Both the position numbers and the translations under genes were made by a program. Shown piece by piece: positions 1 to 32,598 of a stretch of 64,000 bases of DNA. The first letter of the stretch is position 1. The number at the start of each line of letters is the position of its first letter. The DNA is taken from assembly GCA_963734545.1 (NCBI GenBank), contig CAVTHO010000005.1:32001-96000 (forward strand). Direction: 5' to 3'. Origin of the DNA: an uncultured Spirochaetota bacterium. GTDB lineage: Bacteria; Spirochaetota; Spirochaetia; SZUA-6; Fen-1364. Below the pieces are notes generated by a model. It made no database searches. It was not told the DNA's origin and was given only the letters and a program-made list of their open reading frames with translations.

Positions 1-411
1 ACATTGCGCGCTATCCGCGGCTTCTCGTGCAGTACCTGCCGGGGCTCTTCACTCGGGTTTGTCATCATCCTCGTGTTCAAGATGCGGAAGAGTCCCTTTG
101 ACCTGTCGGTGTCGCACCATGCCCACCAGGAGATCGTGCGCGGCATCACCACCGAGTTCTCGGGCCGCACCCTGGCCCTGATCGAGATCGCGCACTGGTA
201 CGAGACGATCGTCGTGCTCGGCATGGTGGCGCTGTTCTTCGCCTCCATACCCTGGCTGGCCGCCGTGGTCACCGCGGCGGTGTTCTTTGCCATGATCCTC
301 GTGGACAACGTGTTTGCGCGGGTGAAGTGGCAGCTTGCACTGGCGAGCGGGTGGATCGTTGCCGCCACCCTCGGGGTGGGCAACATCCTGGTCGTGTACT
401 TCCTGAGATAG
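1..411 (+). CDS. echB: Ech hydrogenase membrane subunit B (NuoH/complex I subunit 1 family), 5'-truncated by the window edge; probable 1-nt insertion near 51
   Basis: Contains KMRKSPFDLSVSHHAHQEIVRGITTEFSG and DNVFARVKW motifs with hydrophobic helices; sits immediately upstream of echC-D-E-F. Confidence 0.85.
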   Translation, partial: TLRAIRGFSCSTCRGSSLGFVIILVFKMRKSPFDLSVSHHAHQEIVRGITTEFSGRTLALIEIAHWYETIVVLGMVALFFASIPWLAAVVTAAVFFAMILVDNVFARVKWQLALASGWIVAATLGVGNILVVYFLR

Positions 412-416
412 AGGAG

Positions 417-1364
417 ATGGCGGGAATGCACGCGTTCAGGAGATCACCCTGGGTCCTCCACTACGACGCCTCCAGCTGCAATGGCTGCGACATCGAGGTG
501 GTGGCCAGCCTGACACCGATGTACGACGTGGAGCGGCTCGGCGTGGTCAATACCGGCAACCCCAAGCACGCCGACATCTTTCTCGTCACCGGCTCGGTGA
601 ACGCGCAGAACCTCAAGGTGCTGCGCACCCTCTACGAGCAGATGCCCGAGCCGCGCGTGGTCGTGGCAGTGGGAATCTGCGCAACCTCGGGCTGCGTGTT
701 CCGCGAGTGCTACAACGTGATGGGCGGAGTGGACACCGTGCTGCCCGTGGACCTGTACGTGCCCGGCTGCGCCGCGCGCCCGGAGTCGATCATCGACGGG
801 GTGATCCAGGCGGTGGAGCTGCTGGAGAAGAAGCGGCGGTTCATGAAAGTCATGCACGGCCGGATGAAGGCCATCGTCATCGAAAGGGCCACGCCGCTGG
901 ACGCGCCGGAGATTCTTGCCCTTCAGAAGATCGTCTACCAGAACGAGGCGGAGATGTACGAGGACTGGAGCCTCACGCCGCTCAAGCAGACCCTGGCGGA
1001 GATGCGGGTGGATTTCGAGTCCAAGGTGTTCATCAAGGCAGTCGTGGGAGGCAAGATCGTCGGCTCGGTGCGCGGCTACATGGTGGACGCCGCAGGAAAT
1101 GCGCAAGCGGGCGCCGGGGGCACCGCGCACATCACGCGCCTCATCGTGCTTCCCTACTTCTGGCAGCGCGGGATCGGCACGAAGCTGGTGCAGGAGATCG
1201 AGGGCTGCTTCCCCCAGGCGCGAAGGTTCGAGACCTTCATGGGCCAGAAAAGCAGGCATACGATGGAGCCCTACCAGAAGCTGGGCTATGTCCCCATCCG
1301 GCAGGAGAAGGTCTCCGAGCAGCGTGACAGGGTGTATTTCGCAAAGGAGAAAACCGGCGAATGA
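417..1364 (+). CDS. echC: Ech hydrogenase small subunit C (NuoB-like) fused to a C-terminal GNAT acetyltransferase domain
   Basis: RBS GAGGAG directly before ATG 417. Fe-S motifs SCNGCDIE, GNPKHAD, VGICA and VPGCAARPE are present. After about residue 150 comes a GNAT fold (IVGSVR...RLIVLPYFWQRGIGTKL...YQKLGY). Confidence 0.88.
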   Translation: MAGMHAFRRSPWVLHYDASSCNGCDIEVVASLTPMYDVERLGVVNTGNPKHADIFLVTGSVNAQNLKVLRTLYEQMPEPRVVVAVGICATSGCVFRECYNVMGGVDTVLPVDLYVPGCAARPESIIDGVIQAVELLEKKRRFMKVMHGRMKAIVIERATPLDAPEILALQKIVYQNEAEMYEDWSLTPLKQTLAEMRVDFESKVFIKAVVGGKIVGSVRGYMVDAAGNAQAGAGGTAHITRLIVLPYFWQRGIGTKLVQEIEGCFPQARRFETFMGQKSRHTMEPYQKLGYVPIRQEKVSEQRDRVYFAKEKTGE

Positions 1365-1759
1365 CGGAAGAAATGCGCAAGCCGGCTCGCAATCCGCCGG
1401 AGCCCCAGATCATCGAGGAGATCCCCATTACGACCCTGCTCGAGAGGGCGCAGCGCATGCGCACCGAGGGATGGCGGCTGGCCCAGGCCTGCTGCACCCG
1501 GCTCGTGGCCGACCAGGAGGTGAACTACAGCTTCGACAGGGACGGCCTGCTGCACACGCTGCGCGTGCGCCTGCCGATGAATGACCCGGTGCTGCCCAGC
1601 ATCTCCCAGTTCTTCTGGGGCGCGTTCCTCTACGAGAACGAGATGCACGACCTCTTCGGCATCACGGTGAACGGGATGGCGGTGGATTTCCACGGGCACT
1701 TCTATACGACCATGATCCCCACCCCCTACGTGACCAGGGAGCCGGACCATGGCGAATAG
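1361..1759 (+). CDS. echD: Ech hydrogenase subunit D (NuoC-like)
   Basis: LPSISQFFWGAFLYENEMHDLFGI motif; ATGA overlap with the echC stop. Confidence 0.88.
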   Translation: MTEEMRKPARNPPEPQIIEEIPITTLLERAQRMRTEGWRLAQACCTRLVADQEVNYSFDRDGLLHTLRVRLPMNDPVLPSISQFFWGAFLYENEMHDLFGITVNGMAVDFHGHFYTTMIPTPYVTREPDHGE

Positions 1760-2829
1760 AACGGTCATCCCTTTCGGGCCCCAGCACCCGGTGCTGCCCG
1801 AGCCCATCCACCTCGACCTCGTGCTGGAAGACGAAAAGGTGGTGGAGGCCGTCCCGAAGATCGGCTACGTCCATCGCGGATTCGAGAAGCTCGTCGAAAA
1901 GATGGACTTCAATGAGCTGGTCTACGTGGCGGACAGGATCTGCGGGATCTGCGCCTTTATCCACAGCATGGCCTACTGCCAGGGCGTGGAGACCGTGATG
2001 CATGTCGAGGTCCCTCCGCGCGCCACGTACCTGCGCACGCTCTGGTCCGAGCTGGCCCGGCTCTCCAGCCACCTGTTGTGGATGGGGCTGATGGCCGACG
2101 CCTTCGGTTTCGAGAGCCTCTTCATGCAGTGCTTCCGCCTGCGGGAAAAGGTCGTGGACATGCTGGAGGAGATGACCGGCGGGCGTATCATCCTGGGCGT
2201 CTGCAAGGTCGGCGGGGTCCGCCGTGACGTCGACAATGAGACGCTCAAGGCGATCGTCGGCAGGGTGAACGATCTTGAAAAGAGCATGCGCCGGGTCGCG
2301 GAGGTGTTCCTCCAGGATGACTCGGTGAAGCACCGCCTGGCCGGCGTCGGCGTGCTCACAAAGGAACAGGCATCCGCGCTCGATTGTGTCGGCCCCATGA
2401 TGCGCGCGAGCGGGATTGCCCGGGACACCCGCATGCAGGGATACGCGGCCTATGCCGGCCTGGACTTCGAGCCGGTAGTGGAGACCGAGGGGGACTCCTA
2501 CGCGCGCTGCGCGGTGCGGATCAGGGAGCTTTTCCAGTCGGTGGATCTCATCAACCAGGTTGCCGCCAGGGTCCCGGCCGGGGAAGTGGCGGTGAAAGTG
2601 AGCGGCTATCCCGAACGGGGAATATCACTCCCGCTGCGAGCAGCCGCGCGGGGAGGTGATCCACTACGTCAAAGGGGACGGCACGCGCTACCTGCAGCGC
2701 TACCGGGTGCGCACCCCGACCTTCGCCAACATCCCCGGCCTGGTGAAGATGCTGCAGGGCTGCCAGCTCGCCGACGTGCCGGTCCTGGTGCTCACCATCG
2801 ACCCCTGCATCAGCTGCACGGAGAGGTAG
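1749..2829 (+). CDS. echE: Ech [NiFe]-hydrogenase large subunit E (group 4); 1-nt insertion near 2610 in this assembly
   Basis: N-terminal GPQHP, GYVHRG and RICGIC motifs. After removing one C near 2610 the frame reads EQPRGEVIHYVKG...RTPTFAN...DPCISCTER* (stop 2827-2829). There is no C-terminal cleavage extension, which is typical of Ech. Confidence 0.9.
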
Positions 2830-2831
2830 GG

Positions 2832-3320
2832 ATGTCTGTTTTTATCATGACGCGTACCGTGCTCAGGAACCTCTTCTCCCGACCCGCCACCCGGCTGTAC
2901 CCATGGCCAGGGAAGGCCAAGGGGCGCGGGGCCATGGATGGCGGAAACGCCCCATGGCCAGGGAAGGCCGAGGGGCGCGGAGCCATGGATGGCGGAAGCG
3001 CCCCAGTCCGGGAGAAGGAGGCGCACCGGTCCGCGCGGAGCCGCGGCCACATCGAAATAGACATCAATGTCTGCATCTTCTGCGGCGCCTGCGCGAAACG
3101 CTGTCCCACCGACGCGATCATCGTCACCAAGCCGCAGAAGGAATGGAACATCGACCGGCTGCGCTGCTGCGCGTGCAATGCGTGCGTCGAGGTCTGCCCG
3201 GTGAAATGCCTGTCGATGGACAGCCGCTACACCGCCCCCACCGTGACCAGGGACAAGGACATTTTCCGGCAGCCGCCGAAATCGGCCCAGGAGCCGGTAC
3301 CTGCGGACAAGGCCCCCTAG
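2832..3320 (+). CDS. echF: Ech hydrogenase subunit F (2x[4Fe-4S], NuoI-like) carrying a 34-aa repeat insertion
   Basis: NLFSRPATRLYP start, then CIFCGACAKRCP and CCACNACVEVCP ferredoxin motifs. Confidence 0.88.
   Translation: MSVFIMTRTVLRNLFSRPATRLYPWPGKAKGRGAMDGGNAPWPGKAEGRGAMDGGSAPVREKEAHRSARSRGHIEIDINVCIFCGACAKRCPTDAIIVTKPQKEWNIDRLRCCACNACVEVCPVKCLSMDSRYTAPTVTRDKDIFRQPPKSAQEPVPADKAP
2901..3005. repeat. Tandem 2 x 51-bp palindromic repeat inside echF
   Basis: Units 2901-2951 and 2952-3002 differ at only 3 positions. Each contains GGCC-AGGGAA-GGCC and GGGGCG..GCCATGGATGGC..CGCCCC hairpins. Confidence 0.9.
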
Positions 3321-30792: not shown

Positions 30793-32598
30793 GTGAAAAA
30801 GTCGCAGAAATGGTCCGATGTCGCGCGCTGGCTGGGATACGTGAGACGCAGCCCGCGGGAGCTCGTCGCGGCATTTCTCTGTCTTGCCGTGGTGATGGTC
30901 GCGGACGTGGTGACACCGAAAATCTTCGGCTCAATCATCGACTCGGTCATCTCGCCCCCGGCCCTCTCCGCGGGAGCAGTCAGGCTCCCCGTTCTCGGCC
31001 TCCTTCCCGTGACCACCGCTCTTCTCTGCATCCTCGGCTTCCTTCTCTCGATCATCGCGCTTCGCGGATGCGCGCAGTTCGGCACGAGCGCAATTCTCGG
31101 GGAGATCGGTGAGCACGTGCACCTCGACATCCGTCAGGAGCTCTTCGATCATCTCCAGAAGCTGCCGCTCTCCTGGTACGATGTTTCCTACACCGGCAAG
31201 ATCATGGCGCGTCTCACCACCGACACCGACGCGCTCTGGGCCCTGCTCTCCAACGGCGTACGGAGCGTCATCGGCCCCGCGCTCACCATTGTCCTGGTCG
31301 TGATCATCCTCTTCACGATTTCGGTCCCGCTCACGCTGGTCGCCCTCGTGACGGCGCCCCTCTCGGGTCTTCTGTATCGCACGGCGCGCCGGCAGGTGAC
31401 GGAAGCGACCCGGCTCCAGCGTGAAACCCTCTCTTCCCTCTACGCGCGGCTGCAGGAAAGAATTTCCGGAGTGCGGACGATCAGGATCTTCGCCCGGGAG
31501 AAGGAGGAGAGCCGGCTCTTCGGAGCGGATATCCGCGCCCTCTACGCCAAGAACGTCACGCTCATCAGGAGCTGGTCGCGCTTCGGGATGCGCGCCTGGT
31601 GGATCACGGCGGCGGCGAATGCCTGCATCCTCTGCATCGGCGGAATCGTCGTGGCGCGCGGCGGCTTCACCATCGGCAGTCTCGTCTCCTTCAGCCTGTA
31701 CGCCGGCATGCTCTTCGGTCCCCTTGGACAGCTCGTGGACAGCTACGCCCAGCTCATGACGAACGGCGAGGTGGCGATGCGCCGCATCTTCGAAGTGCTG
31801 GACGAGCCGATCGCGCGGGAAGTCAGCTCGGGAATCGAGCCCTGCCCGCAGCTGCGAGGCGGCATCCGGCTCGAGTCGGTGTCCTTCTCCTATGTGCCGG
31901 AAAGCCCGGTCCTCCGCGACGTGAGCATCGAGATACGACCCGGGGAGCGGGCCGCCATCGTCGGCCCCTCGGGCGGGGGAAAGTCGACCCTGGTCAATCT
32001 CATATGCCGATTCTATTCCCTGGGCAGCGGCCGCATCCTGGTGGACGGCGCCGACATCACCCGCTGGGACGTGAAGAGCTGGAGACGACGCATCAGCTAC
32101 GTTGCGCAGGACAGCTTCATCTTTTCCGGGACCATCCGGGACAACATACGGTTCGGAAAGCCCGAGGCATCGGACGATGAGGTCGAGCGCGCGGCCGCGC
32201 TTGCAAACGCGCTGGACACCATCAGGGCGATGCCGCGGGGGTTCGACACTGTCGCGGGTGAGCGGGGCATCACCCTTTCGGGAGGACAGCGCCAGCGCAT
32301 CGCCATCGCGCGCGCCCTGGTCCTGGACCCGAGCATCATCATCATGGACGAGCCGACCAGCGCGCTGGACGCCGAGAGCGAATCAATCCTCCTGGAAGCC
32401 CTCGACTCGGTATTCAAGGGCCGTACCTGCATCGTCATCGCGCATCGTCTCTCGACCGTCGTCAACTCGGACACGATATTCGTGCTCTCCGAGGGAAGGA
32501 TCGTGCAGCAGGGCAGGCACGCGGAGCTCCTTGCCGCACCGGGGATCTACCACGAGCTGTGCACCCGGCAGTTCCTCCTGGGCGGCACCCGGGTCTAG
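30793..32598 (+). CDS. ABC exporter, fused TMD and NBD (MsbA/Sav1866-like)
   Basis: GPSGGGKST, LSGGQRQR, DEPTSALD and IAHRLST motifs; start uncertain (30754 or 30793). Confidence 0.9.
   Translation: MKKSQKWSDVARWLGYVRRSPRELVAAFLCLAVVMVADVVTPKIFGSIIDSVISPPALSAGAVRLPVLGLLPVTTALLCILGFLLSIIALRGCAQFGTSAILGEIGEHVHLDIRQELFDHLQKLPLSWYDVSYTGKIMARLTTDTDALWALLSNGVRSVIGPALTIVLVVIILFTISVPLTLVALVTAPLSGLLYRTARRQVTEATRLQRETLSSLYARLQERISGVRTIRIFAREKEESRLFGADIRALYAKNVTLIRSWSRFGMRAWWITAAANACILCIGGIVVARGGFTIGSLVSFSLYAGMLFGPLGQLVDSYAQLMTNGEVAMRRIFEVLDEPIAREVSSGIEPCPQLRGGIRLESVSFSYVPESPVLRDVSIEIRPGERAAIVGPSGGGKSTLVNLICRFYSLGSGRILVDGADITRWDVKSWRRRISYVAQDSFIFSGTIRDNIRFGKPEASDDEVERAAALANALDTIRAMPRGFDTVAGERGITLSGGQRQRIAIARALVLDPSIIIMDEPTSALDAESESILLEALDSVFKGRTCIVIAHRLSTVVNSDTIFVLSEGRIVQQGRHAELLAAPGIYHELCTRQFLLGGTRV

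Follow-up and report, generated by a model that had tools for sequence, protein, structure and literature searches.

Ech is a group 4e energy-converting [NiFe]-hydrogenase, known as EchABCDEF from Methanosarcina barkeri, Thermoanaerobacter and Desulfovibrio, and hydrogenases of this type decide how fermenters and syntrophs of anoxic soils and sediments shed reducing power as H2. Here we describe an ech operon from an uncultured Spirochaetota bacterium (GTDB lineage Spirochaetia; SZUA-6; Fen-1364) in which the small subunit, EchC, continues in the same reading frame into a GNAT acyltransferase domain. The gene lies on contig CAVTHO010000005.1 of assembly GCA_963734545.1, near the start of the 64,000-nucleotide stretch analysed here (positions 32,001 to 96,000 of the forward strand; hereafter, the window). 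Like the described Ech systems, this locus has six genes in the order A-B-C-D-E-F for NuoL/H/B/C/D/I-like subunits, a four-cysteine small subunit, an EchE with RICGIC and DPCISC nickel-binding motifs, and an EchF with two 4Fe-4S motifs. Unlike them, its EchC carries a C-terminal GNAT domain of ~166 residues; the unfused EchC proteins of 47 other ech loci span ~145-160 residues, in agreement with the initial annotation, which had regarded EchC as single-domain elsewhere.

For the EchC half, the best Foldseek match was MbhJ of the Pyrococcus membrane-bound hydrogenase (6cfw_J; 52% identity over 133 columns, E 4e-11), which differs in being a single-domain protein of 143 residues without a GNAT. 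For the GNAT half, the best matches of a family profile were PDB entry 2atr, RibT (5xxr) and YpeA (2pdo, 4qus), with E-values of 3.8e-13, 3.4e-11 and 5.1e-11; these share its size and fold but are free-standing, and they allow no transfer of function because their own substrates are, to our knowledge, also unknown. RimI/Naa-type acetyltransferases gave weak matches only (Naa20 at E 0.016 with the single sequence, below which nothing was found in the PDB, and several Nat entries with the profile), and the beta-5 Glu and alpha-4 Tyr of the window GNAT (E272 and Y286) occupy positions that we take to be catalytic in RimI, presumably aligning with its proposed base and acid. Assignment to RimI itself (TIGR01575) was rejected, as NCBIfam returned nothing for the window GNAT at E <= 0.01 and its free-standing relatives reach 26-34 bits where 86.4 are required. 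PanM/PanZ is a GNAT that acts as an acetyl-coenzyme A (acetyl-CoA) sensor, regulating the aspartate decarboxylase PanD by binding and not by transfer; it differs from the window GNAT in not being fused to its target, and this family (NF033213) was likewise rejected, with no match for the window GNAT and 16.5-23.5 bits for the relatives (cut-off 68). Full-text searches, with supplements and subscription journals outside their coverage, found no description of the fusion; hundreds of such proteins are already in databases, named automatically, for instance as 'ech hydrogenase subunit C'. A further comparison is with protein acetyltransferases of anaerobes that act on redox enzymes, such as At2 of Clostridium ljungdahlii, a single-domain GNAT that work on the regulation of formate dehydrogenase identified as the major acetyltransferase (PMC7439476); it differs from the window GNAT in being free-standing and not part of the enzyme that is modified.

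The fused gene, its domains and its operon

The reading frame is open on the plus strand from position 327 to the TGA at 1362-1364 and contains ATG codons at both 417 and 426. The initial annotation had placed the gene at 417-1364; its frame and stop are confirmed, and translation likely starts instead at ATG 426, because relatives begin at the residue matching this codon, which lies 9 nucleotides after GAGGAG. Residue numbers refer throughout to the 315-residue product counted from ATG 417. The features of the gene are:

411-416, plus strand: GAGGAG, a likely ribosome-binding site, 9 nucleotides before ATG 426 (read from the sequence)
426-1364, plus strand: echC-GNAT fusion gene, with an alternative in-frame ATG at 417 and the stop codon at 1362-1364
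477-809, plus strand: EchC/NuoB-like [4Fe-4S] domain, residues 21-131, with ligands C21, C24, C88 and C118 (Pfam, NCBIfam, Foldseek)
780-863, plus strand: last EchC helix, continuing as a helical linker into the GNAT, residues 122-149 (AlphaFold2 model)
864-1361, plus strand: GNAT domain, residues 150-315, with a P-loop-like WQRGIG at 249-254, beta-5 E272 and alpha-4 Y286 (Pfam, AlphaFold2, Foldseek, conservation)
1086-1121, plus strand: Ala/Gly-rich insert of 12 residues, DAAGNAQAGAGG, in a GNAT beta-hairpin (alignment; low model confidence)

Pfam called Oxidored_q6 at residues 21-131 of the product (E 3.1e-29, 101.7 bits; cut-off 27) and Acetyltransf_1 at residues 179-268 (E 1.6e-10, 41.7 bits; cut-off 20.7), together with Acetyltransf_7 (32 bits; cut-off 27) and Acetyltransf_10 (30.7 bits; cut-off 23.6), which extend to residue 299. 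All three GNAT matches, with E-values from 1.6e-10 to 3.4e-7, exceed their curated cut-offs. NCBIfam placed the N-terminal half in the NuoB subfamily NF005012 (134 bits; cut-off 116), and in an alignment of 30 fused homologues the cluster ligands C21, C24, C88 and C118 are invariant. With both domains called and all four cysteines conserved, the earlier description of a single frame joining a complete EchC to a GNAT was borne out; it is near certain that the N-terminal half is the Ech [4Fe-4S] small subunit and that a complete GNAT is joined to its C-terminus via a short helical linker. Among the 30 aligned sequences, the Ala/Gly-rich insert is confined to the window and the three relatives nearest to it (P0002, P0006 and P0014), and its length varies between them.

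The AlphaFold2 model of the fusion has a mean predicted local distance difference test score (pLDDT) of 72 and a predicted template modelling score (pTM) of 0.57, with pLDDT in the GNAT ranging from 66 to 94 per 10-residue block. Strands and helices follow the order expected of a GNAT fold. Since the EchC helix (residues 122-149) reaches residue 149 in this model and the first GNAT strand (154-157) begins at 154, the tether between the domains is short and probably stiff. Foldseek searches with the GNAT half recovered GNAT structures at E ~1e-10, including ArsN, PaiA, BAR, RimI and Naa60 at template modelling scores of 0.63-0.81 (target length); the fold is that of a generic GNAT, with ArsN and PaiA as examples of similar structures (12-18% identity).

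Within the window, the genes run echB-echC/GNAT-echD-echE-echF, and echA and the remainder of echB lie just upstream on the same contig. As the initial annotation had noted, the GNAT is embedded in the operon, the stop codon of the fusion overlapping the echD start in an ATGA at 1361-1364. Searching the genome by tblastn with EchA-F of a related ech locus (L002; L-numbers denote ech loci, and L002-L012 are separate assemblies from other organisms) located all six genes in order; the Pfam scan covered EchB, EchC, EchD, EchE and EchF, and EchA was placed by tblastn. The order echA-B-C/GNAT-D-E-F is identical in L002, L005, L007 and L009-L012, and the nickel-binding cysteines of EchE (C65, C68, C353 and C356) are invariant in 12/12 EchE sequences from fused loci. 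Thus, the operon encodes a predicted six-subunit, Ech-type group 4 membrane [NiFe]-hydrogenase.

The fusion is, with near certainty, natural and not the product of an indel, because the same pair of domains recurs in independent data, its frame is intact elsewhere, and contigs cross the junction without gaps. A search for the architecture foreseen in the initial annotation found both Oxidored_q6 (PF01058) and Acetyltransf_1 (PF00583) in 119 of the 120 best clusters (clustered at 90% identity), whose two-domain members are ~300 residues long, range from 93% down to 55% identity and derive from JGI, ENA, NCBI and Logan; such recurrence greatly exceeds what chance would give. Among 60 ech loci from species-representative genomes, 13 carry the fused gene, and a second scan made with the GNAT part found 47 fused loci among its best 80. 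The fusion open reading frame is intact in L002 and L005-L012. Contigs from other sequencing runs cover the junction with 0 gaps (run X1 across 799-1164; run X4 across 698-855 and 826-947) and report no indel between 415 and 1382, so that a change restoring an EchC stop near the junction, which had been considered earlier, was not seen. A split form, with a separate GNAT of the same family, was found within ~8 kb of echC in none of the 47 unfused ech loci. One related spirochaete, L013, has at least nine frameshifts across echA-F, one of which splits the fusion; this record is unfit as evidence for a split form.

Distribution, origin and conservation of the fused domain

The two scans share six loci, and together they place the fusion in at least 54 species-level genomes, mostly of Verrucomicrobiota. 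The 47 fused loci from the GNAT-part scan comprise 26 from Verrucomicrobiota, 5 from Spirochaetota, 4 from Omnitrophota, 3 each from Planctomycetota and Kiritimatiellota, 1 from Lentisphaerota and 5 without a phylum label. No cultured carrier was found among the fused loci, all of which are titled as metagenome-assembled genomes or metagenome assemblies except for one single-cell genome (Candidatus Omnitrophus magneticus). In the order to which the window belongs, 10 of 92 genomes encode the full-length fusion and one more carries a frameshift-broken copy; in its genus, the fusion is present in 7 of 21. We read the ech operon as an accessory trait in this lineage, because its distribution there is patchy.

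In a tree of the GNAT domain, all 30 fused domains fall on one side of a branch separating them from 70 other family members (Shimodaira-Hasegawa-like approximate likelihood ratio test support 96.4), and on this ground the fused GNATs are consistent with a single fusion origin. The EchC tree, built from 145 columns only and poorly resolved, was made without L013 and without L061, L065 and L066, which are duplicate loci; it recovers a Spirochaetota clade of fused genes with support 100. The spirochaete copies were probably acquired from bacteria of the Planctomycetes-Verrucomicrobia-Chlamydiae (PVC) group, a direction that we infer. Across nine spirochaete sequences (36 pairs), the ratio of nonsynonymous to synonymous substitution rates (dN/dS) ranges from 0.054 to 0.463 in the GNAT, compared with 0.039-0.168 in EchC. 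The GNAT is therefore under purifying selection and is constrained less than the EchC core.

The family to which this GNAT belongs is large and, as a whole, appears uncharacterised. Searching 1.84 billion representatives with the GNAT domain alone returned 1426 matches at E <= 1e-3, of which 629 reached E <= 1e-10, and its matches in the ESM Atlas were to generic 'GNAT family' clusters only. From the best 150, we classified the 140 representatives that were new to the GNAT search: 78 are free-standing, 54 are longer proteins with a terminal GNAT, 7 are laid out differently and 1 is fused to EchC. Adding P0030, which had been found in the earlier cluster search, brings the EchC-fused representatives among these matches to two. 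Among the proteins from this search (P0123-P0270), partners also include a squalene-cyclase-like repeat. Some relatives carry a second GNAT, as judged by eye from N-terminal sequences and without a domain scan.

We then compared residue conservation between 30 fused members and 24 free-standing relatives. The family signature is almost fully kept in the fused set (ILALQK-AYQSEA-Y-D--IPPLTQTL, FLKA, IVGSVR, GRLIVHP--Q-RGIG and RFELFTG--S--N--LY--LGY). The QRGIG loop, proposed earlier to bind CoA, is indeed present at residues 250-254; within this beta-4/alpha-3 CoA-pyrophosphate loop (Q/R-x-x-G-x-G/A; W249-Q-R-G252-I-G254, with Trp at the first position here), G252 is kept in 30/30 and G254 in 27/30 fused members. 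Q170, P246 and E262 are likewise kept in all 30, E272 in 29 and Y286 in 25. Three positions are stricter in the fused than in the free-standing proteins: E179 (30/30 versus 8/24), K213 (28/30 versus 4/24) and D183 (30/30 versus 16/24).

Candidate roles of the GNAT domain

We know of no post-translational or metabolite control of Ech-type hydrogenases, and a conserved domain of the acetyl-CoA type on a core electron-transfer subunit offers a testable candidate for such control. Tentatively, and in the knowledge that the role is a guess, we favour a tethered, acetyl-CoA-dependent acetyltransferase that acts on Ech or on its ferredoxin. Because EchC sits on the cytoplasmic arm, the GNAT would be fixed to the side of the complex that faces the cytoplasm, where it might bind acetyl-CoA and transfer the acetyl group to a nearby amine, such as a lysine or the N-terminus of an Ech subunit or ferredoxin partner. 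Ferredoxin-driven H2 evolution would thereby be coupled to the acetyl-CoA pool fed by pyruvate:ferredoxin oxidoreductase. In support of this, the domain looks competent, as its loop glycines, E272, Y286 and nearly all family positions are kept and its GNAT fold is predicted with confidence; At2 of C. ljungdahlii offers a precedent. The carriers, in at least 54 species-level genomes, belong to groups common in the peat and wetland metagenomes examined here. A bolder claim, which we regard as improbable, is that the GNAT gives an energy-converting hydrogenase, for the first time, an acetyl-CoA input of its own: acetyl-CoA from pyruvate:ferredoxin oxidoreductase would be sensed at the enzyme, or would serve there to acetylate the complex or ferredoxin, and so govern how fast reduced ferredoxin is discharged as H2. 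In fermenting PVC bacteria and wetland spirochaetes, carbon flux would then act directly on H2 release, as through a metabolic valve.

Several observations weigh against a tethered acetyltransferase that serves the hydrogenase. None of the results obtained here supports a functional tie between the GNAT and Ech. The Ech enzyme may not be made in this organism, because echA, echB and echE are each frameshifted. Close relatives of the GNAT are mostly free-standing proteins of ~150-165 residues (78 of the 140 classified, counted at 200 residues or less), and the family is promiscuous, with other partners that include indole-3-glycerol-phosphate synthase (IGPS, TrpC), PRA isomerase (PRAI, TrpF), S-adenosylmethionine (SAM) methyltransferases and DUF3795. 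The fused set is less strict at two residues with a usual part in acetyl-CoA chemistry: Asn282, just ahead of helix 4, is replaced by Thr in 16/30 fused members and is Asn in 22/24 free-standing relatives, and Tyr286 is replaced by Phe or His in 5/30 and is Tyr in 24/24. The C-terminal motif HTMEPY (residues 281-286), which the initial annotation had called diverged, is thus present, and its divergence marks part of the fused set: Thr takes the place of Asn in those 16 members, and 25 of the 30, the window among them, retain the Tyr. The EchC tree requires four changes of the fused label, at least two of them forced, and groups the fused Planctomycetales locus L012 with three unfused Omnitrophota loci (support 99), so that one or more losses of the domain, or else an exchange of the EchC part, must have occurred. 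The GNAT domain is thus dispensable for Ech. Among 401 sampled genomes of Spirochaetota, the fusion occurs in 2 and an unfused EchC (63-74% identity) in 16. Nor do the EchE N-termini give any pointer to a target, because fused and unfused loci are alike: EchE starts M-[AGS]-x-R-T in 13 fused loci, and the second residue is small in unfused loci too. EchF offered no partner element, its tails and lengths showing no consistent difference between fused and unfused loci.

A hitch-hiking domain, active on an unrelated ancestral substrate and gaining from EchC only co-expression or a location at the membrane while the hydrogenase is unaffected, is somewhat unlikely in its own right; it ranks close behind the tethered acetyltransferase because the family is promiscuous and unfused relatives exist. 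The mostly free-standing habit of the family and its range of partners (IGPS, PRAI, SAM methyltransferases, DUF3795, a second GNAT) are what such a passenger would predict, as is the absence or loss of the domain in Ech relatives nested among fused ones. The conserved acceptor-side positions of the family are also kept in the fused set, as expected if an old substrate were retained, and EchC lies within 3 kb in 0/33 of the non-fused GNAT loci among the best 80, which leaves the free-standing family unconnected with hydrogenases. On the other hand, a single fusion has lasted, at dN/dS values far below 1, through divergence down to 55% identity in at least six phyla, the greater strictness of E179, K213 and D183 hints at new constraints, and the very short helical linker of the model suggests a fixed position on the complex. 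If the domain does prove to be a passenger, the case would caution against taking a domain fusion as proof of functional linkage, above all in a GNAT family as promiscuous as this one.

We consider it unlikely that the GNAT is a non-catalytic sensor of acetyl-CoA or CoA, in which nucleotide binding would alter Ech activity or ferredoxin access allosterically. The glycines of the CoA loop are kept while the catalytic Tyr and the Asn vary in the fused set and are almost invariant in free-standing relatives, the latter match PanM at 16-24 bits (weakly, given the cut-off of 68), and the tether is predicted to be short and rigid, all of which would suit a sensor. Yet the window itself retains Tyr286, as do most fused members, Glu272 is kept in all but one, and the window GNAT matches neither PanM nor any other NCBIfam family at E <= 0.01. 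Docking of the GNAT on the complex was not obtained either: a complex prediction of the GNAT against the EchC core, EchE (from L001) and EchF, with EchD left out, gave a score of 0.00 (mark 0.32), which speaks neither for docking nor against it.

Less probable still is a structural accessory, that is, a supernumerary part that stabilises the peripheral arm and has no ligand-dependent role. In its favour, enzyme-like folds have become accessory subunits of complex I, selection on the GNAT is 2-4 times more relaxed than on EchC, and a low-complexity insert is present in the window and its three closest aligned relatives; however, the ligand site that the domain has in common with the free-standing family is conserved at almost every position, which a purely structural role would not require. 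Finally, an assembly artefact, in which a lost stop or an indel joined echC to a separate GNAT gene, is refuted for practical purposes: frameshifts in echA, echB and echE of the same assembly and ATGA at 842-845 and 863-866, which would make a stop/start overlap in another frame, speak for it, but clusters from four sources share the fusion, open reading frames are intact in separate assemblies of other organisms (L002-L012), contigs of other runs cross the junction gap-free, and none of the 47 unfused loci has a split arrangement.

Neighbouring genes and frameshifts in this assembly

The remaining features of the operon within the window are:

1-411, plus strand: 3' part of echB, a NuoH-like membrane subunit (Pfam NADHdh, E 1.5e-16); its frame breaks near 34-53
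1361-1759, plus strand: echD, NuoC-like (Pfam Complex1_30kDa, E 2.8e-9); its start overlaps the fusion stop
1749-2829, plus strand: echE, the [NiFe] large subunit (Pfam Complex1_49kDa, NiFeSe_Hases), broken by an extra C at 2610-2612
2832-3320, plus strand: echF, a 2x[4Fe-4S] ferredoxin-like protein (Pfam Fer4 families; alignment)
2900-3005, plus strand: 51-nucleotide tandem repeat in echF, 2.1 copies (Tandem Repeats Finder score 191, 94% matches)

The assembly (5.14 Mb in 10 contigs, 89% complete) carries one frameshift each in echA, echB and echE relative to intact relatives, and the frames of the operon are accordingly not all intact in this genome. The echA frameshift, seen against the intact L002 protein, lies just upstream of the window (G000:C5, ~30360). 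For echB, the intact L002 protein aligned by tblastn in two pieces, each in its own frame, with the join at window positions 34-50; contigs of runs X2 (three contigs) and X4 (one contig) omit one letter at 53, which suggests that the window carries either a mistake or a change specific to its strain. For echE, tblastn likewise gave two pieces, the window reading CCC at 2610-2612 where L001, L002 and L005 read CC, and this extra C puts the C-terminal nickel-binding motif out of frame. The RxCGxCxxxH and DPCxxCxxR motifs of EchE are consequently both present but in different frames; the Pfam matches (Complex1_49kDa, NiFeSe_Hases) end by residue 283, with the C-terminal part and its DPCISCTER in another frame. 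No indel was reported at 2610-2612 in any of the four runs compared. The extra C may be an assembly error or may mark a real pseudogene. Equal depth of run X3 in the flanking bins suggests that a contig spans this site unchanged.

Within echF, the tandem repeat adds 34 residues near the N-terminus of the protein (PWPGKA[KE]GRGAMDGG[NS]A, twice), an insert without counterpart in 8/8 aligned relatives. One X3 contig lacks 2902-3014, a span that takes in most of this repeat, and has 9 other letters there. Open reading frames adjoining echF in L009, L011 and L012 have N-termini that resemble HypA and HypC by eye, without a scan against a family library. The genome also encodes four further NuoB/EchC-like genes at 34-52% identity (C4:557022-557429, C4:580448-580840, and one each on C9 and C7). 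Selenocysteine, suggested by '1 TGA' in many paralogue matches, was rejected, the TGA flagged in the first of these four genes being the stop codon of a 148-residue EchC-like paralogue. The four genes point to other group 4 hydrogenase or complex I-like clusters in the same genome.

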